Source: an uncultured Muribaculaceae bacterium
GTDB taxonomy: Bacteria > Bacillota_I > Bacilli_A > RF39 > UBA660
Assembly: GCA_964616495.1 (NCBI GenBank)
Contig: CAZTRF010000001.1
Coordinates: 3,759-66,884 of the forward strand
Reading direction: 5' to 3'
DNA: 63,126 nucleotides
The position numbers and the translations under genes were made by a program. The notes below the pieces were generated by a model. The model worked only from the letters and a program-made list of their open reading frames with translations. It was not told where the DNA came from and did no database searches. This document shows positions 3,677-56,170 of the stretch, piece by piece. Position 1 is the stretch's first letter, and each line of letters begins with the position of its first letter.

Positions 3677-6518
<2,842 letters not shown>

Positions 6519-6519
<1 letters not shown>

Positions 6520-13484: not shown

Positions 13485-13516
13485 ACTCAAACCAATTAAT
13501 TGGTTTGGGTCTTTTT
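13485..13516 (+). terminator. Intrinsic terminator/attenuator immediately upstream of the short RSH gene
   Basis: The 11-bp stem ACTCAAACCAA/TTGGTTTGGGT (one G-U pair) has loop TTAA and is followed by CTTTTTG. Only 16 nt separate it from ATG 13533. Confidence 0.65.
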
Positions 13517-13532
13517 GTTAGGAGTGATAGTA

Positions 13533-14957
13533 ATGAAAAAAGAGTTAATTAAATTAATAAGGCTTTATAATAATAATGAAGAAGAAATTAAAAAGATAGA
13601 AATGGCTTATGACTATGCAGAGCATGCTCATGAAGGAATGTATCGAGATAGTGGAGAGCCTTATATTACTCACCCTGTAGCAGTTGCAGTAATGCTTATT
13701 GAAAGACATGCCGATGCGGATACTATCTGTGCTGCTTTACTTCATGATACACTAGAAGATACCAAAGCTACTAAAGAAGAAATAGCTGATTTATTTGGTA
13801 GTGAAGTAGCTAAATTGGTTGATGGAGTTACTAAAATAACTAATTTTAATAATAAAACTAGTGATAATAGAGCAACTAAAAGAAAATTAATTACTAGTAT
13901 CAATGCTGATGTTAGAATTATCATCATTAAATTATTAGATCGTCTTCATAATATGAAAACCTTATCTTATAAATCTTTAGAAAGTCAAAAAAGAAATGCT
14001 ATGGAGACCTTAGAAATATATACTCATATAGCTAATTATTTAGGTGAATATGAGATTAAAGAACAATTAGAAGATCTTTGTTTAAGTTTTTTAAAAAGAG
14101 ATGAATATTTAAAAATAAAAGAAGAATTAGAAAGAATTAAATTAGATAGTACTGGTTCTTTAAAAGAAATGTATGATACCATTACCTATATATTAACTAG
14201 TAATGATATTCCTTGTGAAATAAAATATCGAGTTAAAAATATTTATGATATTTATCAAAAAGTAAGTAAAGGTGGTAAAATAATTGATATCCATAACTTA
14301 TTAGCTCTTAGAATAATTTTAAATAGAAGTTTAGAATGTTATATGGCTATGGGTTTAATTCATCAACAATATCATCCTTTAACAGGCCTTTTTAAAGACT
14401 ATATATGTAGTCCTAAAAAGAATGGATATAAAAGTATCCATACTACCGTTTTTGGCCCAAATGAAACTTTAGTTCAAGCTAGAATTAGAACTAAAGAAAT
14501 GGATTTAATTAATAACTATGGACTATCTTCATTTTGGTTTACTAAAGGGAATGAGGCCAGTAGTGAAATGCAAAGTACATTAATGAGAGAATTTCAGTTT
14601 ATTAAATCGCTAAGTGAAATAGATCATGAATGTTTAGATGATATAGAATTTGAACGTCAAATAAAAAAAGACCTTTTTTCAGGTAATATTTATGTGTGTA
14701 CACCTAATGGAGAAGTAATAGAATTACCAATAGAATCTAATTCAATAGATTTTGCCTATCATATTCATACTGATTTAGGAAATAAAATAATAAGAGCAAT
14801 TGTAAATGGAGAAGAAATATCAATATTTACTCCTTTAAAAGATAATGATATAGTAAAGATAATAACTGATGAAAATTCTTTAGGGCCCCACATTGGATGG
14901 ATTAATAAAGTTCATACAATTACCGCTAAAAGAAAAATAAAAGAGTTTGGAAAGTAA
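13533..14957 (+). CDS. Truncated long-RSH paralog (HD hydrolase + degenerate synthetase + TGS; no C-terminal ZFD/ACT)
   Basis: The hydrolase motifs are intact: HEGMYRDSGEPYITHP, LLHDTLEDT and DRLHNMKT. The synthetase block is recognisable (YRVKNIYDIYQKV, NGYKSIHTTV) but reads DIHNLLALR and VQARIRT where catalytic D and E are expected. The TGS domain is IYVCTPNGEVIELP...DFAYHIH. ATG 13533 follows a GGAG RBS; the TTG 13500 start in the track lies inside the terminator. Confidence 0.85.
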   Translation: MKKELIKLIRLYNNNEEEIKKIEMAYDYAEHAHEGMYRDSGEPYITHPVAVAVMLIERHADADTICAALLHDTLEDTKATKEEIADLFGSEVAKLVDGVTKITNFNNKTSDNRATKRKLITSINADVRIIIIKLLDRLHNMKTLSYKSLESQKRNAMETLEIYTHIANYLGEYEIKEQLEDLCLSFLKRDEYLKIKEELERIKLDSTGSLKEMYDTITYILTSNDIPCEIKYRVKNIYDIYQKVSKGGKIIDIHNLLALRIILNRSLECYMAMGLIHQQYHPLTGLFKDYICSPKKNGYKSIHTTVFGPNETLVQARIRTKEMDLINNYGLSSFWFTKGNEASSEMQSTLMREFQFIKSLSEIDHECLDDIEFERQIKKDLFSGNIYVCTPNGEVIELPIESNSIDFAYHIHTDLGNKIIRAIVNGEEISIFTPLKDNDIVKIITDENSLGPHIGWINKVHTITAKRKIKEFGK

Positions 14958-36997: not shown

Positions 36998-37055
36998 TAT
37001 TCTAATTATGATATATTTATATAAGAAAAAATAACCATAAAAAGGAGTGAGTGAT

Positions 37056-38225
37056 ATGAGAAAAATATTACAAAGTATAGGATTATTTTTAATTGCTTTT
37101 ATCATTGCTATTCCTGGAGTTTTGGCTGATAGTATATCAACTTCAATCTCAGGAGCAAGTGAAATCGAAGCTGGAGAGGAGTTTACTTTAACCTTTAAAG
37201 CAACCAGTGGTACTAACATATGGGGACTTACTGCTAAACTCAACTATGATAGCAGTAAACTATCAATAGTATCAAGTAGTGCTGGTAGTGGGTTTAATTT
37301 AACTTTAGGTGCCAATATTGTTATTGATGCTACTAGTGGAGTTAATGCCCCTTTTATTATCTGTACTATTAAATTTAAAGCTTTGACAGGCTTTGTAGCT
37401 AATGAATCAACTACTGTGTCTCTTTCAAATGTTCAAGGCTCAGATGGAAATGTTGATATTAATGGTAGTGGTTCATCTAAAATTATAAAAGTTGTTCCAC
37501 CAAAATCAAGCAATAACTATTTAAGCGGTTTAGCAGTTGATGTTGGGACAATAAAATTTAATAAAGCAACTAATTCTTACACTATAGTAGTTGAAAACGC
37601 TGTAACTACGGCTAACATTACAGCTACTGCTGAAGATGCTACCGCTAAAATAAGTGGAACTGGATCAAAGCAATTAAGCGTATATACCAATACTTTTAGT
37701 ATCGTTGTAACAGCTGAAAATGGAACCAAAAGAACATATAAAATCTATATAAAAAGAAAAGATCAAGATGGAAATACTGCCAAAATAAGTAGTGATAATT
37801 TTTTAAAAGAATTAACTATTACAGGTTACAACATTGACTTTAATAAGGCTACTACTGAATATAGCATAGAAGTAGAAAATGATGTTGAAGTACTAGAAAT
37901 AATAGCTAGTGCTAATGATAGTGGAGCTACTGTTAATGTTATAAAGCCAGATGCTTTAGTTACCGGTGAAAATATTATCACAGTTGAAGTAACTAGTAAA
38001 AGTGGTGAAAAAGCCACTTACACTATTAAAGTAAATAAAAAAGAAAAACAAGTAGATCCGGAACCAATAGTGGATGATAAAAAAGAAGAAGAAAAAGAAA
38101 ACAAAGATACTTCTTTCAGTCATACAAAGTGCTATATATTTATTGGAGTGTTAGGAGTTTTATTTGTTGCATCATTTATATTAAATATCTTATTCTATAA
38201 AAAAATAAAAAATAGAGGTGTTTAA
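37056..38225 (+). CDS. Membrane-anchored cohesin-domain protein with two cadherin-like beta-sandwich (Cadg) modules (mini-scaffoldin/anchor)
   Basis: Signal peptide ...IPGVLA|DS. The cohesin-like module (nt 37128-37502) reads ISGASEIEAGEEFTLTFKA...GLTAKLNYDSSKLSIVS...ICTIKFKA. The two Cadg modules read NNYLSGLAV...YTIVVEN...ITATAEDATAKISG...IVVTAENGTKRTYKIYIKR and NFLKELTI...YSIEVEN...ASANDSGATVNV...VEVTSKSGEKATYTIKVNK. A K/E-rich linker and a C-terminal TM anchor follow. ATG 37056 lies 8 nt after an AAAGGAG. Confidence 0.65.
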   Translation: MRKILQSIGLFLIAFIIAIPGVLADSISTSISGASEIEAGEEFTLTFKATSGTNIWGLTAKLNYDSSKLSIVSSSAGSGFNLTLGANIVIDATSGVNAPFIICTIKFKALTGFVANESTTVSLSNVQGSDGNVDINGSGSSKIIKVVPPKSSNNYLSGLAVDVGTIKFNKATNSYTIVVENAVTTANITATAEDATAKISGTGSKQLSVYTNTFSIVVTAENGTKRTYKIYIKRKDQDGNTAKISSDNFLKELTITGYNIDFNKATTEYSIEVENDVEVLEIIASANDSGATVNVIKPDALVTGENIITVEVTSKSGEKATYTIKVNKKEKQVDPEPIVDDKKEEEKENKDTSFSHTKCYIFIGVLGVLFVASFILNILFYKKIKNRGV

Positions 38226-38228
38226 TAT

Positions 38229-41200
38229 ATGAAAAAAACATTCAAAAAACTAATTAGTTTAATAAGCATTATTTTAATGCTTTTTCCAGAATTATTTCCT
38301 TTTGTAGGAATAATGAAAGTTGATGCTGCTTTATATGAAGGACCAACTGTAATTGAAAATATTGATTTAAACTTTACAGATCATCAATCTCAAGACATTA
38401 CTCTTGGTGAGGGCGAAACATTTTCAAGCTGTTCTTCTGAATCACCTAGAATAGCATCAACTACGATATCAGCTGATAATAAGGTTTGTACTATAACTGC
38501 TTTATCTTACGGAATATCATCTGTTTATTTAAATATATATGCCGGTGGTAGCTATGAGAAAACAATATTTGTTAATGTTGATAACAATACTTTCTTAAAT
38601 AGCTTTTTAGATTCAATTCCTAATGAAATGACAATGACTTATCCCGAATATCAAAAATACATTCAAAATTATAGTCTAAATAGTAATAACCCAAATGATG
38701 TTAACGTTTATTTTGAAGAAAACTCTTTTGAAAATGGAACCTTCATAACTACAGCTGAAGTAACTGATAAAAATTATTACTATTTTAATAATGATGGTCA
38801 GGTTCACTATTACGAAAATGAGGACGATGCCACCATTTCTAAAGAAGTTCGTTTTAATATAATCGGCACGATGCTTTATGGTGACCTAGTTCATGCTTCA
38901 TTATCTTATTTATCAAAGATTGATTTTGTAACAAATACTGAAGTTAATTATGATAATTTAATATTTGTAAGCAGTGATAATAATATCTTTACTGTTGATA
39001 ATAAAGGCTATGTTAAGGGTGTATCTCTCGGCAATGGATATGTTTATGTATATGATAAAGAATCTGATGTGTATTACAAATTAGAGGTAAATGTTCAAGC
39101 TGGTTTTAATAATAATCCTGATTTCTCAGCTATTACTAGTTATTTTAACAATCAAACATTTGATGTTAATATAAGTACTAGTACGATAGCCAAAAAAGCT
39201 ATAAAATATACAGAAGGTGGTACATATACTATTGACCCAGCATCTTATTTTACAGCACTATATAACGAGCATTTTACACCAATATATGGTAGCAATATGC
39301 CTTATTTTAATAGTTTATCTTGTACCAACAATGTTTGCTCAGGTAGCGGTAGTTATTATTATGGCTCATCAGGATCTATCGATATAACAAATGCGACCTT
39401 TAATTTTAATGGAATAAAATTATTAGAAACTTATCTTATAGCTGATCCAAGTTCAAGTTTTGATTTAAACATTATAAAGTTAGGGGCAAGTGCTGATTCA
39501 GAAATCAGCTTTACTTATGATAGCGATTATTTAACTGAAAATGCTAACGGAACATTTTCTGCATTAAAAACGGGAGTTACAGAAGTAACCGCCAGTGATG
39601 GAACTTATCAGAGTACTGCTAAAATGTTTATTTCACCAACATATACTGATATTGCCCCAATTACAAATTATTTTAATAATTTATCGTCTATTACCTTGAC
39701 TTATCCTGTAACAGTTTTTAATGATTTAAATTTTTTATCAAAAGCTGTTAAAAACTATCTTACTGAAAACACACCTGAAAGTAATGGATATAAAAATTTA
39801 TATGAATATGATGTTAAATGCATAAATACTAATATGTGTCAAATCAAAAAGAATGAATATTATGATGCTGAGCATCTATATCCATCAGGTTTTTATTTAT
39901 CTTCTTTCAATTCTAAGATAATTCGCATAAATTATTCATTGGCTGAAGCTACAGAACTTACAGCTGCTGTTAATGAATTAAATAATATTGATAGTAAAAT
40001 TAATATTGCTTTTGAAGATATAGAAAAAGCTTATTATAGCTGTGATGCTTCAGACACTTGTTTTAACGAAAAAATTATAGAGGCAGCAGAATTGCAATTT
40101 AATTCATCAATGTTAAGTTTAAGCGACTTCGTTACAATTGAACAAATACCTGATATTTACTATACTATGGAAGGAAAAGTTCAGCTATCACTATATGGTG
40201 AAGTATTGTATAGCAAGCCAGTAGTAATAACTTATAATAAAATTCATACTCTTTCTCATTTATTAGAAAGAACCGAAGAATATAAAATAAATAATTATAA
40301 AGAAAAAATAGTTGATATGAGTACAACTCTTAATAATTATTCATTAACCACTAATGATATTACCATTACCTTAGTAAGAGATAAAATTTATAATATTGCA
40401 TATCATAATGATAATGAGCATGAAATCACATATAATTTTATGATCGATCAAAAAGAAAAAGTAAAAATAACAGGATTATCATTTGGGTCAAATTTTCCAG
40501 GTAAAAATATGGAAATTGGTGATGAAGAAGTTCTATATTATTCTGTTTATCCGGAAAATGCTAATTATGGTACCGTAGAATTTGTAAGTGCAGATCCAAC
40601 AATTATATCGGTTAATAATACTACTAGAACTATTACTGCTCTAAAAAAAGGTTATACAACTATTTATCCAAAGATAAATGGTAAAGTCCAAAAACATAGT
40701 GGTTATCTATCATGTGTAGATACCACCTATGAAGATATTCTTAATGATATGTTAGAAGCTAATGGCCCAAGTAATGTTACTATAACTTATTATGATTTAC
40801 TAAACTTTGATTTGATAAGTGCCATAACTAATGAAGTAAGTAATCAAATAAATAATAATTTAAATAGGCCGTTAAGTTCAACGGTTGAAGTTGAAGAGAT
40901 TGGAACAACTGGAACATATAAATATCGTTTAGTTTATTCAGAATATATTTACGGATCATCTGAATCCTCTTTTAGTTATTCTCAATATAAAAATATTACC
41001 TATGATAAAAAAGGAATAAGTACTACTGATAACGAATATAAAATAGATATTAATGAAATAGTGGATACTAAATTATCATTTAGTGAAGCTGATAATATAA
41101 ACTTAAATATTAGAATTGAAGATCCAAGTATTGTTTCATATAGTAATAGTGGGATTTTAAAAGGACTTAAAACAGGCAAAACTTATATTTCTATTTATGA

Positions 41201-42875
41201 TAAGTTTGATAAATACTATAATGATATTTATGTTACTGTAGATGGGGATACTCTTTATACAAATATTATTGATGAGTTAAATGATATCGATACAGTCATA
41301 CTTCCTAGCTCAGCAATTGCTAATACGTATGGTTCATATAATCAGATTTTTGATACAGTACTTTTAAGAAAAGTCGATAAATATGATTTATTTAATACCC
41401 ATACTACAATATGCAATAATGTAAATAGTACTTGTACTTTATCACTTAACTATGAATTAAATGGTCAAGAAGAAGAATTTTCAAAAACATATGCTTTTTT
41501 AATACAAGGTTTAACTATAGAAAACAATGACATTGAATTAGCAACTGGAGAGTCATATACATTAGAATATACTTCAATTCCTAATACTGACCCAGTGACT
41601 ATAACCTCTTTAACACCAGAAACTTGTAGTATTGTTGATGATGAGGTATTGGCTTTACAACGAGGAGGATGTTACGTAAAAATTAAAAATAGCACTGATT
41701 TTGATGTTTTAAAAGTAGCCATTGATAAAGATGATATTATTGCCGAATATCAAGATTTACTTGACTCGCTTCCTAATGAAATAACTTTAAAAATAGAAGA
41801 GTATAATGGTGATATAGGTATGGAAGATTATAGTTATATGGCTGCATATTCAATGCTCTTTAAATTAGCTATTGTTGATTTATTAGACTTAAACGAAAGT
41901 GAAATCACCAATTTTTATCCAAGCTTTTTTGATTTAAATGAAGATGATGGAACAATGCCAGTTTCTTTATATCCTAATTTATCATACCATGATGAAATTA
42001 GTGGTGAATATTATGGAGTTAATATTAGTCCAGTTGAAAAAGCGGAACCAATAAAAATATTATACGATAATGATTTTATTGCTGATCAAGAAGAGGTTGA
42101 TGCTATAGTTGCCACTTTGCCTAAAGAATATCGTCTAAGTATTGATCAAATAATTAAATATCGTCTATTGGGTGGACAGATGATTGATTATACAGACTTT
42201 TCTAATATCTTAGATGCTTATCCCGATTATGAATTACAATATGATATGGCCGGAGCTGGTGGAAGTATGGCTATGGTAGGGCAAAATTATGCTTATACTG
42301 TTTTAAAAGATGGATATGTAGTGGCTTTTGGAAGTGTTGATGTTTATATGTATTTTGAAGATGAAAACACCACGGTTATGACACAAGAAGAATACATTGA
42401 ATATTTAAAAGGCCTTGTTACTGATGAATATATTTCTGTTCAAAATGAAATATCAAATTTAACAACTTTAGCTGTTAGAATGGATATTAGCGAGCCAACT
42501 GAATTATTAGAAGATTCAATATATGGCTTAGGAGATACAACCCCGGAAGTTACTGTTACTTATATTAGAAACAGTGCTGACCCAACAGTTGATACTTACG
42601 ATATTCGAGTTGAAGATATTGCCTTTAGATTAACGGTTGGTAAAAAAATAGCTCAAGGAGCAACTTATGATGCTAGTTATCTAATAGGAGATTTAACTGG
42701 AGATAATGTTATTTCAACAACCGACTTGGTCAAACTAAGAAGACATTTAGCGGGAATTGAATCAGTTACTGGTAATAAACTAAAAGCCGCTGATATTAAT
42801 CGTGATAATAATGTTACAACAACTGACTTGGTCAAACTAAGAAGACACTTAGCGGGAATTGAATCAATAGCTTAA
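38229..42875 (+). CDS. 1548-aa secreted multi-domain protein with Big_2 Ig-like domains and a C-terminal type-I-like dockerin
   Basis: It has an N-terminal signal/anchor. Big_2-like segments include VEFVSADPTIISVNNTTRTITALKKGYTTIY and FVSSDNNIFTVDNKGYVKGVSLGNGYVYV. The C-terminus GDLTGDNVISTTDLVKLRRHLAGIE...ADINRDNNVTTTDLVKLRRHLAGIE forms the two Ca-binding F-hand repeats of a dockerin. Confidence 0.7.
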   Translation: MKKTFKKLISLISIILMLFPELFPFVGIMKVDAALYEGPTVIENIDLNFTDHQSQDITLGEGETFSSCSSESPRIASTTISADNKVCTITALSYGISSVYLNIYAGGSYEKTIFVNVDNNTFLNSFLDSIPNEMTMTYPEYQKYIQNYSLNSNNPNDVNVYFEENSFENGTFITTAEVTDKNYYYFNNDGQVHYYENEDDATISKEVRFNIIGTMLYGDLVHASLSYLSKIDFVTNTEVNYDNLIFVSSDNNIFTVDNKGYVKGVSLGNGYVYVYDKESDVYYKLEVNVQAGFNNNPDFSAITSYFNNQTFDVNISTSTIAKKAIKYTEGGTYTIDPASYFTALYNEHFTPIYGSNMPYFNSLSCTNNVCSGSGSYYYGSSGSIDITNATFNFNGIKLLETYLIADPSSSFDLNIIKLGASADSEISFTYDSDYLTENANGTFSALKTGVTEVTASDGTYQSTAKMFISPTYTDIAPITNYFNNLSSITLTYPVTVFNDLNFLSKAVKNYLTENTPESNGYKNLYEYDVKCINTNMCQIKKNEYYDAEHLYPSGFYLSSFNSKIIRINYSLAEATELTAAVNELNNIDSKINIAFEDIEKAYYSCDASDTCFNEKIIEAAELQFNSSMLSLSDFVTIEQIPDIYYTMEGKVQLSLYGEVLYSKPVVITYNKIHTLSHLLERTEEYKINNYKEKIVDMSTTLNNYSLTTNDITITLVRDKIYNIAYHNDNEHEITYNFMIDQKEKVKITGLSFGSNFPGKNMEIGDEEVLYYSVYPENANYGTVEFVSADPTIISVNNTTRTITALKKGYTTIYPKINGKVQKHSGYLSCVDTTYEDILNDMLEANGPSNVTITYYDLLNFDLISAITNEVSNQINNNLNRPLSSTVEVEEIGTTGTYKYRLVYSEYIYGSSESSFSYSQYKNITYDKKGISTTDNEYKIDINEIVDTKLSFSEADNINLNIRIEDPSIVSYSNSGILKGLKTGKTYISIYDKFDKYYNDIYVTVDGDTLYTNIIDELNDIDTVILPSSAIANTYGSYNQIFDTVLLRKVDKYDLFNTHTTICNNVNSTCTLSLNYELNGQEEEFSKTYAFLIQGLTIENNDIELATGESYTLEYTSIPNTDPVTITSLTPETCSIVDDEVLALQRGGCYVKIKNSTDFDVLKVAIDKDDIIAEYQDLLDSLPNEITLKIEEYNGDIGMEDYSYMAAYSMLFKLAIVDLLDLNESEITNFYPSFFDLNEDDGTMPVSLYPNLSYHDEISGEYYGVNISPVEKAEPIKILYDNDFIADQEEVDAIVATLPKEYRLSIDQIIKYRLLGGQMIDYTDFSNILDAYPDYELQYDMAGAGGSMAMVGQNYAYTVLKDGYVVAFGSVDVYMYFEDENTTVMTQEEYIEYLKGLVTDEYISVQNEISNLTTLAVRMDISEPTELLEDSIYGLGDTTPEVTVTYIRNSADPTVDTYDIRVEDIAFRLTVGKKIAQGATYDASYLIGDLTGDNVISTTDLVKLRRHLAGIESVTGNKLKAADINRDNNVTTTDLVKLRRHLAGIESIA
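42687..42872 (+). other. Dockerin module (two F-hand repeats)
   Basis: See above. The two repeats share a block of about 50 nt that is nearly identical at nucleotide level (about 42718-42768 and 42823-42873). Confidence 0.7.
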
Positions 42876-42926: not shown

Positions 42927-42955
42927 TAGACAAAACGCCCATTAAAGCCTATAAT
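42927..42955 (+). promoter_or_regulatory. Promoter of the hydrolase-queA-amidoligase-ATP-grasp operon
   Basis: TAGACA (42927-42932), 17-nt spacer, TATAAT (42950-42955). Confidence 0.55.
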
Positions 42956-42980: not shown

Positions 42981-43667
42981 ATGGTTTCAAAAGAACATCT
43001 AAAAGAATTAGAAAGTACTTTTAGTCAAAATGAAAAACATGGTAATCTTTTAGTACCTAGTCATAATTTTACTAAAGGGCTTGGAAATATTATATTGACT
43101 GCTCCCCATACCGTTATTACAAGCAAAATTAAAAATGGAATTGAAACTATAAAAGAAAATGAATCTTATACTGGGGCTATTACTTTAATGTGTGGTGAAA
43201 TTGCTGGATGTCATACCATGACCCGTAACAATTATAATGATGTTACTGCTATCACTAATTTTTATAATGAATATTTACAAGATTATATTTCTTCTTATGG
43301 AATAGTTGGTCATTTAGATATTCATGGTGCTGCCAGGACTAATCCTTATGATGTATCAATAGGTACTAATCATCTTGAACATATTTTTTACGATCAACAG
43401 GTTTACGAAATTGTTAATGATGGATTTAATGATTATGGAATTAATAATGTGGTTTGGAATTCTAAATTTCAAGCCTCTACTAAAGCAACTTTATGTCGTC
43501 AGGTATTCTTAGGTAAAATGATTCATACTCTTCAACTAGAGATAAATAAAAATTATCGCGATTTAAATGATTTTGAGAAAATGGTAGCTCTTATTAAGGC
43601 CATTTCTGAAATAGCTATAAATTTAAATGAGCATTTATCTTCCGGTGGTTTAGGATATGGCAGATAA
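42981..43667 (+). CDS. Metal-dependent amidohydrolase-like protein (N-formylglutamate amidohydrolase / PghP poly-glutamate hydrolase-like fold, tentative)
   Basis: The conserved pattern APH...ENESYTG...HLDIHGA...GTNH...LQLEINKNYR (H, E, H, E candidate ligands) is shared with the C-terminal domain of the next gene. The family assignment is from memory only. Confidence 0.4.
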   Translation: MVSKEHLKELESTFSQNEKHGNLLVPSHNFTKGLGNIILTAPHTVITSKIKNGIETIKENESYTGAITLMCGEIAGCHTMTRNNYNDVTAITNFYNEYLQDYISSYGIVGHLDIHGAARTNPYDVSIGTNHLEHIFYDQQVYEIVNDGFNDYGINNVVWNSKFQASTKATLCRQVFLGKMIHTLQLEINKNYRDLNDFEKMVALIKAISEIAINLNEHLSSGGLGYGR

Positions 43668-45330
43668 TAGTTTATTAAATATTAATACCTATGATTATCC
43701 ATTAGACAAAAACTTGATTGCTCAAACGCCTATAAAAAATCGCGATCAATCAAAATTAATGGTTGTCAATCGTAAAAATGGTGATATTTCTCACCATATT
43801 TTTTCTGATATTATAAATTACTTAAATAAGGGCGATTGCCTAGTACTAAATGATACTAAAGTAATACCCGCCAGACTATTTGGAGTAAAAGAAGCAACAA
43901 AAGCTCATATTGAAATACTTTTATTAAAAGATAATGGTAATAACTTATGGGATTGCCTTATTAGAAATTCCAGAAGATTAAAACAAGAAGATATTATTTC
44001 TTTTGGTGAAGGATTATTAAAAGGGAAAGTCATTTCTAAGGCCTCTGATGGGGTAATAAAACTTCAATTAATATATGATGGCATTTTATATGAAATACTT
44101 GATAAACTAGGAGAAATGCCCTTACCGCCATATATTCATAAACATTTAAAAGAACAAGATCGTTATCAAACGGTATATGCTAAAAATATTGGTAGTGCTG
44201 CAGCTCCTACTGCCGGATTACATTTTACAAAAAAATTACTTGACGATATTGAAAAAAAAGGTATAATAATTTGCTACGTCACATTGCATGTTGGTTTAGG
44301 TACTTTTAGACCAGTTGAAGAAGATAATATTTTAAATCACCATATGCATAGTGAATATTATGAAATGACTTCGGATGTGGCAAAATTATTAAATGATGCT
44401 AAAGAAAGTCATCATAAAATTATTGCTGTAGGAACAACCTCTACTAGAGTATTAGAAACCGTCTATAGTAAATATAATTCCTTTAAAGAATCTTTTGGAA
44501 ATACCGATATTTTTATCTATCCGGGATATACCTTTAAAGCAATTGATTCTTTAATTACTAATTTTCATTTGCCAAAATCAACTTTAATGATGCTAGTAAG
44601 TGCTTTTAGTAGTAAAGATATTATTATGAATGCTTATAGAGAAGCTATGAATAAAAAATATCGTTTCTTTTCATTTGGTGATGCCATGCTTTTGGATATT
44701 CCTAATTATGAAAAATTGTTAGACGAGTTTAAAAATCAAAAGATTTATTTAAAAAAAGATAATTTTAAAATTTTAAAAGGAACCATTCCTATAATGATAT
44801 CAGTTCCTCATAGTAAAAAGCATTTACGAGATGGAATGGTTAAAAATAATGAACATAATACAGCTAGAATTGCTAAACTATTATATTGTTTAACTAATTG
44901 TCATTTAATCTATGCCTATAAACAGGGAGATAATGACCATAACTATGATGAAAGTTCTAATTATAAAAAAAAGTTAAAAGCCTATATAAAAGAAAATAAC
45001 ATTAAGATATTAATAGATATTCATGGTATGGCTGATTCTTATGACATCGAGTTAGGAACTAACCATTATCAAAATATTTTTAATGATAAAGATATTATAA
45101 ATAATATTAAAGATATATTTTATAAAAATAATATAAAGAATGTATTTGTCGACCGAAAATTTAAAGCTAAAAGACATAATACTATTAGCAATTACATAAA
45201 TAAAGAATGTAATATTAAAACTATTCAACTAGAAATAGGCCCTAAGTATCGTAAAATCAAATTAAGACCAAAATCATTTAATAAAATTATAATAAGTTTA
45301 GAAGAAATCATAAATAAGAATAAGGAGTGA
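43657..45330 (+). CDS. queA: S-adenosylmethionine:tRNA ribosyltransferase-isomerase QueA fused to a C-terminal amidohydrolase-like domain
   Basis: Residues 1 to about 347 are canonical QueA (LIAQTPIKNRDQSKLMVV, LVLNDTKVIPARLFG, PLPPYI, AAPTAGLHFT, GTTS.RVLE, NFHLPKSTL, RFFSFGDAMLL). Residues from about 365 to 557 repeat the pattern of 42981-43667 (VPH...NNEHNTA...LIDIHGM...GTNH...IQLEIGPKYR). Confidence 0.85.
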   Translation: MADNSLLNINTYDYPLDKNLIAQTPIKNRDQSKLMVVNRKNGDISHHIFSDIINYLNKGDCLVLNDTKVIPARLFGVKEATKAHIEILLLKDNGNNLWDCLIRNSRRLKQEDIISFGEGLLKGKVISKASDGVIKLQLIYDGILYEILDKLGEMPLPPYIHKHLKEQDRYQTVYAKNIGSAAAPTAGLHFTKKLLDDIEKKGIIICYVTLHVGLGTFRPVEEDNILNHHMHSEYYEMTSDVAKLLNDAKESHHKIIAVGTTSTRVLETVYSKYNSFKESFGNTDIFIYPGYTFKAIDSLITNFHLPKSTLMMLVSAFSSKDIIMNAYREAMNKKYRFFSFGDAMLLDIPNYEKLLDEFKNQKIYLKKDNFKILKGTIPIMISVPHSKKHLRDGMVKNNEHNTARIAKLLYCLTNCHLIYAYKQGDNDHNYDESSNYKKKLKAYIKENNIKILIDIHGMADSYDIELGTNHYQNIFNDKDIINNIKDIFYKNNIKNVFVDRKFKAKRHNTISNYINKECNIKTIQLEIGPKYRKIKLRPKSFNKIIISLEEIINKNKE

Positions 45331-45336
45331 TTTATT

Positions 45337-46194
45337 ATGGAAGAAGAAATTAATTATCGTGAAAGATTTGACACCCTTTTAAATATTCAACCCAATTATG
45401 GAATAGATCATGTTAAAAAACCAGTCAAATTTAATTATATTGGATTAGAAATTGAAATTGCAGTTATCTATGATCGTAGTCGTTATACCTTCATTAGGAC
45501 TTTAATTAAACAGGTCATTAAATTAGTTGGCAATAATGGCTATTTTACTAGTGATGGAACAATTATAGGAGATTATTCTTTTGAAATAGTAATGAAACCA
45601 ATGAGTGTTCCAAAAATAGTTAAGTTTTATCGAACCCTCAAAAAAATAATTAAATTTAGTGATGGATCCCTTGCTTTTGATAAGGAACATAATTGTGGTC
45701 TTCATATGAATTTTAATCAATATGATGTTCCTAATATTGAAGAGGCTCATAAAAGGTTATTACTATTATGTAATGAAAAACCTGAGTATTTTGATGAAAA
45801 CGTTTATAAAAGAACCATTTATAACTTTACATTTAAAGATTATGTGGAGTTCCAAAAGACCGTTGCCAACAAGTATATTGGCATTAACTATTTAAATAAG
45901 AAAATAGTTGAAATAAGAAATATAAAAGTTAGTTTATCATCTTCTAAATTAGAAGAAATAATGAAAGACTTATTATATTGTTTGTTTGAAGAAAAATTAC
46001 CATCTCATAAAGAAAAAATGAAAGTTCGTAAACTAAAACATGTCGTTAATGCAGCCTTTGCTAAAGAAAATAATAAAAGTTTAAATGAAGGATTAGATGA
46101 AGGATATATCTTAATAAAATTTGATAAAACCATTCCTAAAGTAATTGAAATTACCGACGAAGTGAAATCTGTTTTAGATGAGGTTACAAAATGA
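45337..46194 (+). CDS. Amidoligase-family (glutamine-synthetase-fold COOH-NH2 ligase, PF12224-like) protein, tentative
   Basis: YIGLEIEIAV...FTSDGTIIGDYSFEIVMKPM...CGLHMNFN matches the remembered GxExE ... DxS ... E.v..P ... GlHvH pattern of that family. Confidence 0.5.
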   Translation: MEEEINYRERFDTLLNIQPNYGIDHVKKPVKFNYIGLEIEIAVIYDRSRYTFIRTLIKQVIKLVGNNGYFTSDGTIIGDYSFEIVMKPMSVPKIVKFYRTLKKIIKFSDGSLAFDKEHNCGLHMNFNQYDVPNIEEAHKRLLLLCNEKPEYFDENVYKRTIYNFTFKDYVEFQKTVANKYIGINYLNKKIVEIRNIKVSLSSSKLEEIMKDLLYCLFEEKLPSHKEKMKVRKLKHVVNAAFAKENNKSLNEGLDEGYILIKFDKTIPKVIEITDEVKSVLDEVTK

Positions 46195-47090
46195 AAAGAA
46201 TAGATGCATGGCTATTTTTTGCTAATGTTTCATATAAGGAAAAAGAAAAAAATGGTTATATTAAAGAAATAATTAAAAAGGCTCAAAAAGAATATGATTT
46301 TAATTTAGAGGTTAAAAATGTTCAAAAGTTTCACATTGTTTCCGGTGAAAAAAACGAACTTTATTATGATGGAAAGCTAGTGAAACAATTACCTACATAT
46401 GCCATTATTAGAAGGTATGAAATTTATTTAATGAGACAATTAGAACTAATGGGAGTTCAAGTATTTAATAGTGTTTCAGCAATGATTGATGCTCGTAATA
46501 AGATGAAAGTTCATCAAATATTAGCTTCTAATCATATAAATACTCCTAAAACCGTTTACACAGTATTTAAAAGTAATTGTGATAATGTTCTATATAAAGA
46601 TATTACAAAAATATTAGGTAGTAAAAAATTTATTTTAAAATGGATATATGGTTCTCAAGGAAAACATGTTTATCTAGTACAAAATGAAGCAGCATTTAAT
46701 GAATTAGTCAAAAAATATAAAGGCAGAATTCTTTGTCAAGAATTTATTGAAGAAAGTTTTGGAATGGATATTAGAGCTTATGTCATTAATAGTAAATTTA
46801 TTGGTGCAGCCATTAGAAAAAGTAATGGTGATAACTTCAAAAGTAATCTAGCTCAAGGAGGAGAAGCTCTTCCAGTAGAATATAATGATGAAATAATTAA
46901 TATTGCTGAAAAAAGTGCTAAAGCAGTTGGACTTGATATTTGTGGCGTCGATATTTTAGTATCTAAAAAAGGTTATTATATCTGTGAAGTAAACGCTTTA
47001 CCAGGTTTCAAATCAATAAAAAAGGTATGCGACATTGATGAAAAAGATATTCTTTTAGGCCTTATCAAAAATAAAATAGATAATAAATAA
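46191..47090 (+). CDS. RimK-family ATP-grasp ligase (alpha-L-glutamate ligase-like)
   Basis: ARNKMKVHQILASNHINTPKT, ILKWIYGSQGKHVYLV, LCQEFIEESFGMDIRAYVI, FKSNLAQGGEA and GLDICGVDIL...YICEVNALPGF. The start overlaps the upstream stop (ATGA). Confidence 0.85.
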   Translation: MKRIDAWLFFANVSYKEKEKNGYIKEIIKKAQKEYDFNLEVKNVQKFHIVSGEKNELYYDGKLVKQLPTYAIIRRYEIYLMRQLELMGVQVFNSVSAMIDARNKMKVHQILASNHINTPKTVYTVFKSNCDNVLYKDITKILGSKKFILKWIYGSQGKHVYLVQNEAAFNELVKKYKGRILCQEFIEESFGMDIRAYVINSKFIGAAIRKSNGDNFKSNLAQGGEALPVEYNDEIINIAEKSAKAVGLDICGVDILVSKKGYYICEVNALPGFKSIKKVCDIDEKDILLGLIKNKIDNK

Positions 47091-47092
47091 TG

Positions 47093-47121
47093 TTGAAATA
47101 TTCTAACTCCTATCTTATAAT
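47093..47121 (+). promoter_or_regulatory. Promoter for the second glycine-rich protein gene, interleaved with the upstream terminator
   Basis: TTGAAA (47093-47098), 17-nt spacer, TATAAT (47116-47121). The -10 box sits in the loop of the 47105-47141 hairpin. Confidence 0.55.
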
Positions 47122-47145
47122 AAACCTATAGGATAGGAGTTTTTG
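47105..47145 (+). terminator. Rho-independent terminator of the queA operon
   Basis: AACTCCTATC (47105-47114) pairs with GATAGGAGTT (47132-47141), followed by TTTTG. The 3' arm contains the AGGAG RBS of the next gene. Confidence 0.65.
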
Positions 47146-47146
47146 T

Positions 47147-49759
47147 ATGTGGAAAGAACTTTCTAAAAAAACTAAAATGATCATTATTGGAATATTGTCT
47201 ATTACCATTCTTTTAGTAGTGGGAATAACCTATGCCTATTTTACAGCAGCCACCGTAGGAGGAAACGCCAGTGCCAATTCAATCCAATTACTAACTGGTA
47301 CTCACGGAAATATAACTGTTAATTATCTTAATGGGAATGGCCTTATTAATATGAATAATGTTGATTTAAAAGAAAATGAAAAAGGAACCATAAAAAAAGA
47401 AATGGTTAAGTTTAGTGTAAATTATCCCGGCAGTGAAGAAGAAAATATATCAATTAATTGGAAAGAAGTAACTAATAACTTTTGTCAATATCAACTGGGA
47501 AATATATGTACTAATAACGATGAAGACAACTATGTTGGAGATGAAATATATTTTGATTTATATGAGTGCAATACTCAAAGTGATTTACAAAATGCCACTA
47601 CAACTATTTTGAATAATTGTACAAATATAACCAATGAAAATAATAGTGCGCCTTTAACCGGGGAAGAAAAACAATTACAAAATGTAGAAGTTATCCCAAT
47701 AATTAATGAAGTTAAATATTATATAATGATTTTAAATATTAATAATCTAAATGTTTTGCAAGACTATAATCAAGGAAAAGCCTTTCAAGGAAGAATTGAA
47801 GTTGTCCTTCGTAATGAGTTTGTTTTAACTTTAAACTTAAATGGAGGGGTTAGTGAAGATTTATTAACTCAAAACATTCGAACTGGTGAAACCATTATTC
47901 TTACCGAGCCAACTAAAGAAGATTATACTTTTATCGAATGGAAAGTAAATGTAGGAGGAACCGATGCTTTATTATCAGGAAATACTTTTACTATGGGTAA
48001 AGAAAATACAACCTTAAAAGCAATTTTTGCAAAAACCATCACTGAATTTTCAGCTAATAACTTAATTACTTATGAAGAATTTAATCCAGAAGCAGATGGT
48101 TATTATAAAGTAGAACTATGGGGTGCAAAAGGTGGAAATTCTAATTATACTGGCGGAGCTGGAGCTTATGTTAGTGGTAGCATTGAAATGAAAGAGGGAG
48201 AAACCTACTATATTTATATTGGGGGTTTAGGTAACCTCACAAGTACCGGTGGATATAATGGTGGAGGAAGAGGGCAAAGCAAGAATCCATCTGGAATGAG
48301 TGGTGGTGGTGGTGGAGCCACTGACATCAGGTACTTTGGTAACATAACCCCTTCGGCAGAGGAATTATTATGGAATTCTTCTTTAGGACTTAACTCTAGG
48401 ATTATGGTTGCTGGTGGCGGAGGTGGCGGTGGAAATAACGGTGACGGAATAAGTGGCAATGGTGGAGCTGGTGGAAATACAATTGGTGGAAGCGGAACTT
48501 CATCAGGTTCTGACTGTTGTGGAAATTCTGCAAATGCTAGTTATAATGGAAAAGGTGGTTCCCAAATTGCTGGGGGTAGTGGCGGTATGGCAGCTGGCAG
48601 TTTTGGTGTTGGAGCAATTGATTCTAATGTCAAAGGCGGTTCTGGTGGCGGTGGCTACTATGGAGGAGGCAGCGGATATTATGGCGGTGGCGGTGGCGGT
48701 GGTAGCTCATATATAAGTGGCTCTTTAGGAAGTATAGCTATTACTGCATCTGACAATCGTACCGCTAAGTGTAGTGCTGAAGTTGCTGCATCAGATTTAA
48801 CTTGCTCTTTCCACTATAGTGAAAAAGCATTTTACTTAACCACTATGAATCAAGGAACGAATTCAGAAGCGGGAAAGGCAAAGATAACTTATGTAGGAAA
48901 ACAATTAAATGTTCCAAGTTATAATATTAGTACTACCACAACTTCCAGTAGTCCTTTAATTATCGATTACATGAATACTTATCAAGAAATAAACGTCTTG
49001 TCTTCAGGATATTATAAAATAGAATTATGGGGAGCAAGTGGAGCAACATATAGCACAAGCTGGGCGCCTTCTGGAAAAGGTGGCTATACGCAAGGCACAA
49101 TATACATGGAGCAGGGAGAAAAATACTACGCTTTTGTTGGAAGCGAAGGACTAAGAAGAAATACCATTAATGGTGGTTATAATGGGGGTGGCGAGGCCTT
49201 AAGTAACTATGCTGCTGGTGGTGGTGGAGCCACTGATATTAGGTACTTTAGTACAACACCGTCTATTGAACAATTACAATGGAATTCCCCTTTAGGATTA
49301 AATAATCGTATTATGGTAGCTGGTGGTGGCGGTGCTGGTGGCTATAATGGAGATAATAAATATGGTACTGGTGGGGCTGGTGGAGGATTAACCGGTGGTA
49401 CAGGAACTATTGGAATTTTAAATTCGACCTATTGGGTTGTAGAAGCAGATTCTTCTAGCAATTGGACAAGAGGTACCGGAGGAACACAAAATGCTGGAGG
49501 AACCAATTATCCAGTAGGAGGCTTTGGTGTTCCAGGAACTCCAGGAGGAACAACATATTCTGGGGCTGGTGGTGGTTATTATACTGGTGGTGGCGGTTAT
49601 TATGGTGGTGGTGCTGGTGGCGGATCTTCATATATTAGTGGCCATTCAGGATGCACAACCCATTTAAATGGCAAAACTTTTGCTTCTACTGAAACTACTT
49701 CAGGAGTAAAATCTGGGAATGGTCAAGCCAAAATAACATATATTGGAAATAGTCTTTAA
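47147..49759 (+). CDS. 870-aa secreted protein: SipW/TasA-type signal + TasA-like N-domain + Flg_new repeat + two tandem ALK/LTK-type glycine-rich (PF12810-like) domains
   Basis: Signal ...LLVVGITYAYFTAA. Flg_new repeat LTLNLNGGV...PTKEDYTFIEWK. The first Gly-rich copy (about 48035-48905) reads YYKVELWGAKGG...GGAGAYVSG...GETYYIYIGG...GGYNGGGRG...GGGGGATDIRYF...RIMVAGGGGGGG...KAKITYVG. The second copy (about 48950-49756) reads YYKIELWGASG...GGYNGGGEA...GGGGATDIRYF...RIMVAGGGGAGG...QAKITYIG. Confidence 0.8.
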   Translation: MWKELSKKTKMIIIGILSITILLVVGITYAYFTAATVGGNASANSIQLLTGTHGNITVNYLNGNGLINMNNVDLKENEKGTIKKEMVKFSVNYPGSEEENISINWKEVTNNFCQYQLGNICTNNDEDNYVGDEIYFDLYECNTQSDLQNATTTILNNCTNITNENNSAPLTGEEKQLQNVEVIPIINEVKYYIMILNINNLNVLQDYNQGKAFQGRIEVVLRNEFVLTLNLNGGVSEDLLTQNIRTGETIILTEPTKEDYTFIEWKVNVGGTDALLSGNTFTMGKENTTLKAIFAKTITEFSANNLITYEEFNPEADGYYKVELWGAKGGNSNYTGGAGAYVSGSIEMKEGETYYIYIGGLGNLTSTGGYNGGGRGQSKNPSGMSGGGGGATDIRYFGNITPSAEELLWNSSLGLNSRIMVAGGGGGGGNNGDGISGNGGAGGNTIGGSGTSSGSDCCGNSANASYNGKGGSQIAGGSGGMAAGSFGVGAIDSNVKGGSGGGGYYGGGSGYYGGGGGGGSSYISGSLGSIAITASDNRTAKCSAEVAASDLTCSFHYSEKAFYLTTMNQGTNSEAGKAKITYVGKQLNVPSYNISTTTTSSSPLIIDYMNTYQEINVLSSGYYKIELWGASGATYSTSWAPSGKGGYTQGTIYMEQGEKYYAFVGSEGLRRNTINGGYNGGGEALSNYAAGGGGATDIRYFSTTPSIEQLQWNSPLGLNNRIMVAGGGGAGGYNGDNKYGTGGAGGGLTGGTGTIGILNSTYWVVEADSSSNWTRGTGGTQNAGGTNYPVGGFGVPGTPGGTTYSGAGGGYYTGGGGYYGGGAGGGSSYISGHSGCTTHLNGKTFASTETTSGVKSGNGQAKITYIGNSL

Positions 49760-50931
<1,172 letters not shown>

Positions 50932-54022: not shown

Positions 54023-56170
54023 ATGGAAAAAAATATAACAATTGATGATTTAATTTCTAAAATGGATGGTTTAGTAGAATCTAAAAAAGAATTAGATGAT
54101 ATTAATGAGGCTTATCTGTTTGCTAAAGAAAGTCACAAAGGGAAAAAAAGAAAAACTAACGAGGAATTTATTACTCATCCTTTGAATGTGGCTTATATTT
54201 TAGCTGGTTTAAATGTTGACACCAAAACAATAGTAGCTGCTTTATTACATGAAACAATTAATCATGGTTCTTCTACTTATGAAAGCATCTGTGATACATT
54301 TGGGAGTGAAATAGCTAATATAGTTTTATCTATATCTAAAATTAACAAATTAGAATTAACCGATGATTCAGAATCATCAAGTATTTATTTAAGAAAAATA
54401 TTGGTAGGACTTTCAGAAGATGTTCGAGTTTTGTTTATAAAATTAGCCGATCGCCTTCACAATATGAGAACTGTTTATGCGTTAACACCGGAAGAACAAA
54501 AGCAAAAGGCCAACGAAACAATGAAAGTTTTAATTCCCATTGCCCATCGTTTAGGTATTAATAAAATTAAAAGTGAATTAGAAGACCTATGTCTAAAATA
54601 TTTAAAACCTGATGTTTATGCCGATATTGAAAAAGAATTGACTAAAGGTAGAGCCGAATTAAATGAAGTTTTAAATGAGATGAAAGAAAATATTTCTAAT
54701 ATTTTAATTGATTATGGGCTTCGTTTTGAAATAAAAGGCCGCGTCAAAAGCATTAATAGTATATATGAAAAATTGGCTAAAGGGCGTAAATTTAGTGATA
54801 TATATGATATTTTAGCTTTAAGAATATTGCTTCCTAAAGAAAATGATTGCTATTTAGCGGTAGGTCTTATCCATGCCAAATATCGTCCCATTCCTAAAAG
54901 ATTTAAAGATTATATTGCTATGCCTAAAGAAAATATGTATCAAAGTCTTCATACAACTGTCTTTGGGATAGATGGTTATTTATTTGAAATTCAATTACGT
55001 ACATATGAAATGGATGAAATAGCCGAAAAGGGGATTGCTTCTCATTGGTCATATAAAGAATCTGGTACTCAAAAAATTCAAAATATGATGGAACAAAAGC
55101 TAGAAATGTTCAGAAATCTAATTGAAGCAAATAGTGATACTTTAAATGATGAAACCCTTACTAATATCTCTAATGAATATATTAGTAATTTAATTTATGT
55201 CTATACTCCTAAGGGAGATGTCGTAGAGCTTCCCGAAGGGGCAACACCAATAGACTTTGCCTATCGAATTCACTCAGGAGTAGGAGATACAATGGTTGGA
55301 GCCTTAGTTAATGATCAAATAGTTCCTCTAGATCATAGTCTTTCTGATGGCGATATAGTTAAAATTAGAATTGATAAAAACTCTCATCCTAAAGAAGATT
55401 GGTTAAAAATTGTTAAAACCACTCAAGCCAAAGATAAAATAAAAGCTTATTTTAGTAAACAAGATAAAATTGAATATATAAAAAAAGGGGAGCTTTTATT
55501 AGATAAGGAACTTAAGAAAAGAAAAATATCAGCTAATAGTATTTTAGATGAGGAAGCTTTAAACAAAATATTTAAAGGTTTAAAATTAAAAGATTTAGAC
55601 GATTTATATTTAGCTATTGGAACATTAAGATATTTACCTAGTTATATTATTGAATACAATTCAAAAGAAAAAGATGAGTTAAAAGATCCTTTACTTATGA
55701 GAAATAGAGGAACTATTCTTAAAGAAAAAATTTATAATGGCAATATTATAGTAAGTGGCTGTGATGATATAAAAGTAACTATTGCTAATTGTTGCAAACC
55801 AGTTAAAGGAGACACCATAGTAGGATATATTACAAAGGGTCGAGGAGTAAGTGTTCATTTAAAAGATTGTCCTAATATTAGTAGTAACGAAGACCGCTTT
55901 ATTGATGTTAAATGGAATGAAGAAAATGATAACTTTTATTATACTGATGTTACTATTGAAACTGATTCTTTAAGTGATCATTTAATGGAAATAATTAGTA
56001 AGACTGGCCAAAAAGAAGTATTTATTGAAAGCATTAATAAAAAAGAAATAGAAAATGGAATTAATTATACTTTAACGGTCAAACTTAAAACTTTAAAAGA
56101 ACTAAACAGTTATCTTCTAGACTTAGAAAAACTAAACTATATTAAAAAAGTAGGGAGGACAAATAAGTGA
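54023..56170 (+). CDS. relA: Full-length RelA/SpoT homolog with intact synthetase and degenerate hydrolase site
   Basis: Synthetase motifs are GRVKSINSIYEKL, DIYDILALRILL, ENMYQSLHTTV, FEIQLRT and ASHWSYKE. TGS (VYTPKGDVVELPEGATPIDFAYRIH), ZFD (CCKP...GYIT.GRGVSVH..DC) and ACT-like domains are present. The HD-domain motifs read LLHETINHG and KRKTNEEF in place of LLHD..EDT and R.SGEPY. Confidence 0.9.
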   Translation: MEKNITIDDLISKMDGLVESKKELDDINEAYLFAKESHKGKKRKTNEEFITHPLNVAYILAGLNVDTKTIVAALLHETINHGSSTYESICDTFGSEIANIVLSISKINKLELTDDSESSSIYLRKILVGLSEDVRVLFIKLADRLHNMRTVYALTPEEQKQKANETMKVLIPIAHRLGINKIKSELEDLCLKYLKPDVYADIEKELTKGRAELNEVLNEMKENISNILIDYGLRFEIKGRVKSINSIYEKLAKGRKFSDIYDILALRILLPKENDCYLAVGLIHAKYRPIPKRFKDYIAMPKENMYQSLHTTVFGIDGYLFEIQLRTYEMDEIAEKGIASHWSYKESGTQKIQNMMEQKLEMFRNLIEANSDTLNDETLTNISNEYISNLIYVYTPKGDVVELPEGATPIDFAYRIHSGVGDTMVGALVNDQIVPLDHSLSDGDIVKIRIDKNSHPKEDWLKIVKTTQAKDKIKAYFSKQDKIEYIKKGELLLDKELKKRKISANSILDEEALNKIFKGLKLKDLDDLYLAIGTLRYLPSYIIEYNSKEKDELKDPLLMRNRGTILKEKIYNGNIIVSGCDDIKVTIANCCKPVKGDTIVGYITKGRGVSVHLKDCPNISSNEDRFIDVKWNEENDNFYYTDVTIETDSLSDHLMEIISKTGQKEVFIESINKKEIENGINYTLTVKLKTLKELNSYLLDLEKLNYIKKVGRTNK

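Follow-up and report, generated by a model that had tools for sequence, protein, structure and literature searches.

A conserved fusion of QueA to a predicted amidohydrolase, encoded beside two predicted ligases, hints at an undescribed step in queuosine metabolism

Introduction

Queuosine (Q) is a micronutrient-like tRNA modification that is exchanged between gut microbes and host. The bacterial Q pathway is considered complete, with Tgt and QueA followed by either QueG or QueH. The locus described here raises the question of why a gene for QueA should continue in frame into a second domain that resembles the product of the gene immediately upstream. The locus is situated on a 63,126-nucleotide (nt) stretch of DNA from an uncultured bacterium (contig CAZTRF010000001.1, positions 3,759 to 66,884). 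This entire stretch is termed the window, has a GC content of ~27%, and supplies the coordinates used throughout. An earlier note on this DNA proposed that a stand-alone copy and a fused copy of one putative metallo-amidohydrolase flank the QueA catalytic domain, and that the fusion is strong evidence of functional coupling. The analysis below establishes that the fusion is conserved and is accompanied by two genes for predicted ATP-dependent ligases which the note overlooked, but which are essential to any functional reading. Together these features hint at an undescribed step in Q metabolism. The conserved fusion and the two ligases thus offer a testable lead for an extra chemical step, which may yield a new nucleoside of the Q family or serve in storage and unmasking of preQ1. 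If instead the association is incidental, the locus cautions that a conserved fusion in a compact operon does not alone show a shared pathway.

Results and Discussion

The QueA Extension Is Genuine and Paralogous to the Product of the Upstream Gene

The open reading frame (ORF) at 43657-45330 (+) specifies a protein of 557 amino acids (aa) that comprises a full QueA (residues 8-346) and a 210-aa C-terminal domain, designated FG2. The QueA domain (residues 1-347; 43657-44697, +) was recognized by three profiles. NF001140 matched residues 8-346 over the whole model with 468.4 bits against a cut-off of 324, TIGR00113 scored 427.2 bits (cut-off 267.45), and PF02547 matched residues 10-346 with 447.5 bits (cut-off 25). 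By this equivalog match the domain is assigned as a tRNA preQ1(34) S-adenosylmethionine ribosyltransferase-isomerase. The profiles stop at residue 346 and residues 348-557 remain, as expected from the earlier placement of the canonical QueA terminus near residue 347 with an in-frame extension of ~210 aa.

FG2 (nt 44698-45327, or 44698-45330, +, with the stop codon) was aligned with the product of the upstream gene FG1 (42981-43667, +), a stand-alone 228-aa amidohydrolase paralogue identified by BLASTP to FG2 and by motifs. The pairwise alignment spanned 208 columns with 29% identity and 48% positives (E=3e-19). At the sequence level this similarity is far beyond chance, and the proposed paralogy of the extension and the upstream ORF is upheld. 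The motif series on which the proposal was based is complete and collinear in both proteins: VPH at residues 383-385 of FG2 corresponds to APH at 41-43 of FG1, NNE(H) at 397-400 to ENE(S) at 59-62, DIHG at 454-457 to the same motif at 113-116, GTNH at 467-470 to 128-131, and QLEI..YR at 524-532 to 185-193.

The junction between the two domains reads ...GDAMLL-DIPNYEKLLDEF... and includes a run of five adenines (A5) at 44711-44715 as well as an out-of-frame ATG at 44708. A single additional A in this run would split the ORF into two overlapping genes, and the earlier caution that an assembly or frameshift artefact might have merged two separate genes was justified. The L088 scaffold, in which foreign sequence and a gap occur at the corresponding position, could be read similarly. 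However, independent assemblies of SRR8925790 and SRR8925795 each gave a protein identical to the 557-aa fusion, in contigs that differ from the window by 3-4 single-nucleotide polymorphisms that are located outside the fusion protein. A full-length search recovered eight 90%-identity clusters of QueA proteins of 556-563 aa with 98-100% of the query aligned, whereas ordinary QueA proteins are 340-350 aa in length. Moreover, >15 orthologous fused ORFs from other lineages have quite different linker sequences. The two independent assemblies and the orthologous fusions with their different linkers exclude an artefact, the likelihood of which is vanishingly small. As judged from these sequences, the QueA::FG2 fusion is genuine and evolutionarily conserved. 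In-frame start codons are lacking around the junction, and FG2 therefore can be produced only as part of QueA.

Two candidate interpretations were discarded. L088 was dropped as an example of an unfused or frameshifted gene: at L088:2458-2700 queA is joined in frame to a DnaX-like N-terminal fragment followed by 10 Ns and then by FG2, and the scaffold, which is of the type of L103 in which the gene is fused, is probably a mis-scaffold. The notion that the FG2-QueA fusion is unique also was abandoned. A word-indexed search with FG2 alone produced 13 stand-alone proteins and no fusions, whereas queries with the full-length protein and with AL, the product of the adjacent downstream gene, found fusions.

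FG2 Is a Predicted Zinc Amidohydrolase

The AlphaFold2 model of FG2, built from 21 sequences, had a pLDDT of 96. The best PDB match in Foldseek searches was Atu2144 (2odf), a member of the N-formylglutamate-amidohydrolase (FGase) family, with E=2.5e-6 and a TMq of 0.62-0.66; sequence identity between FG2 and 2odf is ~10%. Other matches were PghL/YndL (5onj), PghP (3a9l; TMq 0.58), the succinylglutamate desuccinylase AstE (1yw4), 4b6z, and M14-type metallocarboxypeptidases. Structure prediction and structural search thus recovered a zinc amidohydrolase fold of the FGase/PghP/M14 type. In combination with the conserved His/Glu/His/Glu residues described next, this result agrees with the metallo-amidohydrolase identity that had been proposed for the extension.

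The predicted metal-binding and catalytic span of FG2 (44803-45252, +) was delimited by conservation in alignments and by a residue order like that of PghL. The predicted site residues are His385 (VPH), Glu399 (NNE), Asp454 and His456 (DIHG), Gln524 and Glu526 (QLEI), and Arg532 (YR). Among the 19-21 FG domains that were aligned, H38, D107, H109, Q177, and E179 (FG2 numbering) are invariant, and E/D52, T55, and R185 are nearly so. The corresponding residues H43, E61, D113/H115, and Q185/E187 are intact in FG1. In PghL, His41, Glu46, and His102 are zinc ligands and Glu165 is catalytic (PMC6506827). The order His...Glu...His...Glu in FG2 is the same and the spacing is similar, as deduced from alignment rather than superposition. 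The set in FG2 therefore may represent the zinc ligands and a distal catalytic glutamate. The interval between the first His and Glu is 13 residues in FG2, compared with 4 in the HxxxxE motif of PF05908.

Profile searches place FG2 at the margin of the known families. The match to PF05013 (FGase) scored 16.6 bits (E=0.009) against a cut-off of 28.9 and covered the C-terminal half of the domain, FG1 did not match PF05013, and neither FG1 nor FG2 matched PF05908 at E<=1. Other members of the FG family exceed the PF05013 threshold (P0319, 37.1 bits; P0306, 36.2 bits; P0351, 32.4 bits). FG1 and FG2 are viewed accordingly as divergent relatives and not as threshold members. Overall the model and profiles support the description of FG2 as a divergent, cytosolic, predicted zinc amidohydrolase related to FGase and poly-gamma-glutamate hydrolases. 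PghP and PghL (PF05908) share the fold, have a His, Glu, His ligand order and a distal catalytic Glu like those predicted for FG2, and cleave glutamyl amide bonds, which is the reverse of ligation by RimK-type enzymes. However, PghP and PghL are secreted or phage enzymes that act on capsule polymer, whereas FG2 is cytosolic and attached to an enzyme that acts on tRNA.

Genes for Two Predicted Ligases Complete a Compact Operon

The AL gene (45337-46194, +) starts 6 nt past the end of the fusion gene and specifies a 285-aa protein. The AlphaFold2 model of AL (pLDDT 87) matched YbdK (1tt4, E=5e-7; 1r8g, E=3e-6) and 29 chains of the glutamine synthetase (GS)/YbdK type at E<=1e-3 in Foldseek searches, although TM values were low (0.37-0.45). 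The window protein has no Pfam match at E<=1. Ten of 40 AL orthologues match PF12224 (Amidoligase_2) weakly, with a best E of 4.7e-4 that is below any curated threshold. Residues G36, E38, E40, H123, E192, and R194 and the motifs GxExE, CGxH, and ExRN are invariant in the 40 sequences. Searches found 81 AL homologues, and those that were examined reside either in a queA operon or in fusions with FG. On the strength of the model, AL is predicted to be a GS-fold carboxylate-amine ligase that is a divergent relative of Amidoligase_2.

The next gene (46191-47090, +) overlaps the AL stop codon by 4 nt (ATGA) and encodes a RimK-family ATP-grasp ligase of 299 aa. The protein scored 180.8 bits with TIGR00768 (rimK_fam; cut-off 143.4) and 134 bits with PF08443. 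It fell below the equivalog cut-offs for RimK-S6, MptN, LysX, and CofF (NF007764, 125.5 vs. 331; NF040720, 142.8 vs. 350; TIGR02144, 115.8 vs. 275.6; TIGR04443, 86.8 vs. 300) and fits no characterized equivalog.

FG1, queA::FG2, AL, and the rimK-like gene form a compact operon in which the genes overlap or are 6 nt apart; the 3′ end of FG1 overlaps the start of queA by 11 nt. The four genes are bracketed by a promoter-like site and a terminator-like hairpin. The former (TAGACA-17-TATAAT; 42927-42955, +) matched the consensus at 11 of 12 positions in a scan, which is not evidence of function, and is preceded by a hairpin and T-run at the close of the upstream gene, which encodes a dockerin protein. 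A ribosome-binding site, GAGAGGAGAAG, precedes the FG1 start codon. The hairpin (47105-47141, +), located by a pattern scan, has a 15-bp stem followed by a T-run. The operon includes no gene for a carrier protein, a target, or a transporter. The tgt gene (tRNA-guanine transglycosylase, 375 aa; 49804-50931, +) is separated from the rimK-like gene by an 870-aa gene at 47147-49759. The product of the latter is a glycine-rich protein of secreted type with Pfam matches to ALK_LTK_GRD and Flg_new. The gene has a local GC content of 0.40 compared with ~0.27, occurs only in this lineage, and looks like a recent insertion.

Reversible Glutamylation of preQ1 as a Tentative Role

RimK-family enzymes add alpha-linked glutamate to a terminal carboxylate, GS-fold enzymes commonly gamma-glutamylate amines, and FGase, PghP, and AstE are hydrolases of acyl-glutamate or glutamyl amides. 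By analogy, the ligases and hydrolases encoded by the operon would make and break an amino-acid amide, most likely a glutamyl amide. Primary amines are limited in the Tgt/QueA pathway to the aminomethyl group of preQ1, which is the target of alkylation by QueA, and glutamylation of preQ1, either free or in tRNA, is preferred as a model on this basis. The ligases and hydrolases would then attach and remove glutamate reversibly at the aminomethyl side chain of preQ1 or Q, with FG2 unmasking the amine for QueA, a reading to which we assign a probability of about 0.4. In the manner of GS-like gamma-glutamyl-amine synthetases, AL might link preQ1 via its primary amine to the gamma-carboxylate of glutamate, and the RimK-like enzyme might add an alpha-linked glutamate. 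The FG hydrolases would remove the added residues; the FG2 domain tethered to QueA would unmask the amine, after which QueA would form epoxyqueuosine from preQ1(34). Such a cycle could help the cell to retain or store a precursor obtained by salvage, or could constitute an alternative modification that is reversible. A bolder version, in which the cluster is a previously unknown branch of 7-deazaguanine metabolism that reversibly glutamylates preQ1 either free or at tRNA position 34, and in which the hydrolase welded to QueA unmasks the base on the tRNA just before ribosyl transfer, is rather unlikely. If correct, this version would make the operon responsible either for a new tRNA nucleoside, an amino-acyl derivative of preQ1 or Q, or for retention of a scavenged micronutrient in the style of polyglutamylation.

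The hydrolases, which are the components most tightly bound to queA, alternatively might act in salvage. FG1 and FG2 would release a 7-deazaguanine precursor from an amino-acid conjugate acquired in the gut, such as material derived from glutamyl-queuosine, and the ligases would be unrelated or serve in recycling. Relatives of the carrier clade have been described as users of Q precursors that lack de novo synthesis, although this is a general statement for Bacillota (PMC11130926). Salvage leaves unexplained the conservation of two ATP-dependent ligases in the same operon, from which a transporter is absent. Moreover, a free-base substrate would predict fusion of the hydrolase to Tgt and not to QueA. 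A salvage role on its own is thus improbable.

The Module Is Conserved in a Clade of Uncultured Gut Bacilli

Gene context look-ups and a metagenome scan revealed fused queA::FG2 genes at loci L097, L099-L105, L108, L109, and L112-L114, and the same gene order at L107, L110, and L111, the contigs of which are cut within queA. AL and a rimK-like gene follow queA::FG2 in all of these loci, with tgt next where the contig reaches. The order queA::FG2, AL, rimK-like, tgt is present at L097, L099-L105, L109, and L112-L114 with 1-110 nt between rimK and tgt, a spacing that narrows to 1-4 nt in L102-L105; L107, L108, L110, and L111 have the same order as far as the contigs extend. Start/stop overlaps with queA were noted in the window, L108, and L097. 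At L102:7657-8723 tgt is split into two ORFs of 94 and 255 aa by a frameshift or a sequencing error. L119 differs in that QueA is plain (348 aa) and FG2 instead forms a fusion of 494 aa with AL, the gene for which begins in overlap with the stop codon of queA.

FG1 is more variable. The window, L108, and L119 have an intact gene upstream of queA, the product of which is 309 aa, including an insertion, in L108 and 240 aa in L119; FG1 of L119 is 46% identical to FG1 of the window in a MAFFT alignment and 48% by tblastn. The arrangement of a stand-alone hydrolase gene before queA and an FG2 domain behind it, which the earlier note had described for the window, recurs in L108 and L119. By contrast, only an 80-aa C-terminal remnant of FG1 persists in L097, L099, and L100, and FG1 is absent in L102-L105. 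The remnant is evident at L097:3163-3405 and L099:4092-4340 as an ORF of 80-82 aa that overlaps the queA start (43% identity, E=4e-12) and is devoid of the entire metal-binding half. In a tree of FG domains, the FG1 sequences branch deeply as a clade of their own, without the DxN motif present in the rest of the family, whereas the FG2 domains fused to QueA form a clade that is sister to the FG domains of FG-AL fusions. The placement of FG1 and FG2 in distinct deep clades (28% identity) implies that the two are old paralogues and not the outcome of a recent duplication.

The nearest queA loci in GTDB are from metagenome-assembled genomes labelled uncultured Bacilli, Tenericutes, and 'Mycoplasma sp. 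CAG:611', with QueA identity of <=68%. None of the 80 closest GTDB queA loci has an FG, AL, or RimK-like gene. In 15 of the 80, queA is followed directly by tgt. In >20, including L015, L018, L031, L035, L041, L042, L048, and L050, an unrelated ORF of ~150 aa, mostly on the opposite strand, lies between queA and tgt; the spacer therefore is prone to insertion in this group. The FG1/queA::FG2/AL/rimK-like cluster thus is restricted to one clade of low-GC, uncultured Bacilli from the gut, whose nearest relatives have a plain queA without the module. In a neighbor-joining tree of QueA domains, 10 of 13 FG-associated QueAs group in a pure clade, and L102, L103, and L119 are located elsewhere. At 55-70% identity the tree lacks the resolution needed to tell a single origin from transfer.

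Is the Association with queA Functional?

Four observations support a link between the module and QueA. In three divergent lineages (window, L108, L119), queA has an FG neighbour directly on either side, and the two neighbours are from distinct clades. The fusion, with intact catalytic residues, has been kept across QueA divergence down to 55-57% identity. The tight operon runs straight into tgt in relatives. Finally, FG2 and AL are decayed at L115, the sole locus that lost queA. At L115:2594-3707, FG2 is an 80-aa C-terminal remnant and AL is split by a frameshift, and the rimK-like gene and tgt are intact. These patterns, with the exception of the continuity with tgt, also speak against an explanation in which the FG, AL, and RimK-like proteins are a toolkit for a non-queuosine target that merely landed in the insertion-prone queA-tgt region of an ancestor. 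The toolkit might perform (de)glutamylation of a protein C-terminus, an acidic peptide polymer, or a cofactor tail. The canonical activity of RimK-family enzymes is elongation of glutamate tails on proteins or cofactors; against this explanation, the operon holds no gene for a carrier or target. Loss of a stop codon between tightly packed genes then would have joined FG2 to QueA, and the fusion would persist because each half is needed in its own right; switching between the fused and unfused states would take a 1-nt change in the A5 run. This incidental origin is a serious possibility, short of probable, and draws further on the distribution of the component families beyond queA.

A profile search found 1,767 FG representatives at 50% identity (E<=1e-3). 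Architectures include stand-alone proteins of ~220 aa, tandem doublets, an N-terminal FG with ~450 further aa, and the QueA and AL fusions. FG domains also occur after ADP-ribosylglycohydrolase, with SLH domains, and after a Peptidase_MA-like region (among P0319, P0351, P0330, and P0306). The FG family has been recruited to several unrelated contexts, and no functional name was found among the members that were looked up. FG-AL fusions of 485-510 aa at L106 and L116-118 have no queA, tgt, or rimK nearby. At L004:6001-10967, a stand-alone FG gene (240 aa) clusters with genes for a 676-aa protein with a weakly FG-like N-terminus, a RimK-like ligase, and a Mur-ligase-M protein. The L004 cluster is an independent one from another organism and adjoins a gene for a Card1-type endonuclease. 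Comparison of the AL profile with the 676-680-aa proteins that have an N-terminal FG by hhalign uncovered no relationship. The analysis thus defines two families, a large amidohydrolase family (~1,770 representatives at 50% identity) and a compact family of predicted GS-fold amidoligases that is fused to it repeatedly.

The charge of FG2 likewise has two sides. The domain in the window is strongly basic, with a net charge of +15 or +16 set by where the domain boundary falls. Values are +15 to +27 in the FG2 clade and +4 to +22 in FG-AL fusions, and average ~0 in stand-alone FG proteins. The basic character of the FG2 clade fits an anionic substrate such as tRNA or polyglutamate. As it is common to FG2 and to FG-AL fusions that are not linked to QueA, it suggests an anionic substrate but not specifically tRNA, and was rejected as specific support for tRNA binding via QueA.

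Several points weigh against a link to QueA and glutamylation of preQ1, the charge shared with FG-AL fusions among them. To our knowledge, amides and carboxylates play no part in the canonical chemistry of QueA and Tgt, no Q chemistry is known to include an amide, and N-acyl derivatives of preQ1 have not been described. The FG-AL fusions of L106 and L116-118 and the L004 cluster imply that the module needs no adjacent Q genes, and FG2 has AL instead of QueA as its fusion partner in L119. The queA-tgt spacer is a hot spot that accepts unrelated inserts, namely the ~150-aa ORF in at least 20 relatives and the 870-aa surface protein in the window. Vertical inheritance after one or two events may account for the conservation, and FG1 has decayed in some lineages. 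An Rfam search of the whole window revealed an L21 leader only and no preQ1 riboswitch. The Tgt linked to the module has the same GGTSVGE pocket as the Tgt of relatives without the module. Thus, the claim in the earlier note that the fusion is strong evidence of coupling holds insofar as the fusion is conserved. It is weakened by the possibly one or two ancestral events, the alternative fusion in L119, the FG-AL proteins remote from queA, the insertion hot spot, and the old divergence of FG1 from FG2.

Relation to Known Systems

All parts of the operon are assigned to superfamilies that are already known: QueA, FGase/PghP-like hydrolases, predicted GS-fold amidoligases, and RimK-like ATP-grasp ligases. 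The QueA domain matches the canonical bacterial enzyme, which usually is encoded in a queA-tgt arrangement, from end to end, and tgt is downstream as in relatives. In contrast to the canonical layout, the window adds the 210-aa C-terminal amidohydrolase, FG1 upstream, and AL and the RimK-like ligase between queA and tgt.

Synthetases are paired with amidases in glutathionylspermidine synthetase/amidase, in polyglutamylation of folate and F420 with gamma-glutamyl hydrolase, and in gamma-glutamylation of amines by PuuA and PuuD. The operon shares the logic of an ATP-dependent carboxylate-amine ligase that is paired or fused with a reversing hydrolase, and the ~490-aa FG-AL fusions mirror the bifunctional synthetase/amidase layout. 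However, most components differ in fold or family, and the likeness is one of mechanism rather than membership. Glutamyl-queuosine is the only amino-acid decoration of bacterial Q34 known to us. It is an ester produced by GluQRS (YadB), a truncated paralogue of glutamyl-tRNA synthetase. The operon has no GluQRS-like gene, and the ligases instead are of the GS-fold and ATP-grasp classes.

Full-text literature searches yielded no paper that links queuosine or QueA with ATP-grasp, RimK, amidoligase, or FGase enzymes, and no QueA-amidohydrolase architecture was found in the searchable literature. The fused proteins that were looked up in public sources carried no names. A survey of fusions of Q genes considered only Tgt-transporter fusions (PMC11130926). 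Sequence searches of the PDB with the FG and AL profiles gave chance-level matches only. The FG profile found nothing in viral contigs, and tblastn against GenBank phages produced no match for AL and one unannotated match for FG2. PHROGs matched FG weakly (phrog_4175, E=3.4e-4). The PADLOC anti-phage models did not match the four operon proteins at E<=0.01.

Other Genes in the Window

The region upstream of FG1 (37047-42875) encodes a cadherin-like protein (392 aa by the ORF list, 389 aa in Logan contigs) and a 1548-aa Big_2/dockerin protein. These two genes are positioned between ruvAB-thyX-like genes and FG1, and are absent from the syntenic region of L097. The window also includes two RelA/SpoT-type genes, at 13500-14957 (485 aa; HD_4, RelA_SpoT, and TGS) and at 54023-56170 (715 aa); the latter is syntenic with the gene for the 714-aa RelA of L097.

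A second, divergent TGT-family paralogue of 372 aa is encoded at 5401-6519. The protein scored 346 bits with PF01702 and is 40% identical to the Tgt linked to the operon. The motifs DSGGFQ and GVGKPDD are kept, and GGWPLDS replaces the canonical GGTSVGE of the pocket for the 7-substituent. The paralogue also has two insertions and a weak match to DpdA (E=3e-4). Its gene follows one for an ABC-F ATPase and overlaps another for an FmrO-type rRNA methyltransferase (associated ORFs 3677-5323 and 6492-7265).

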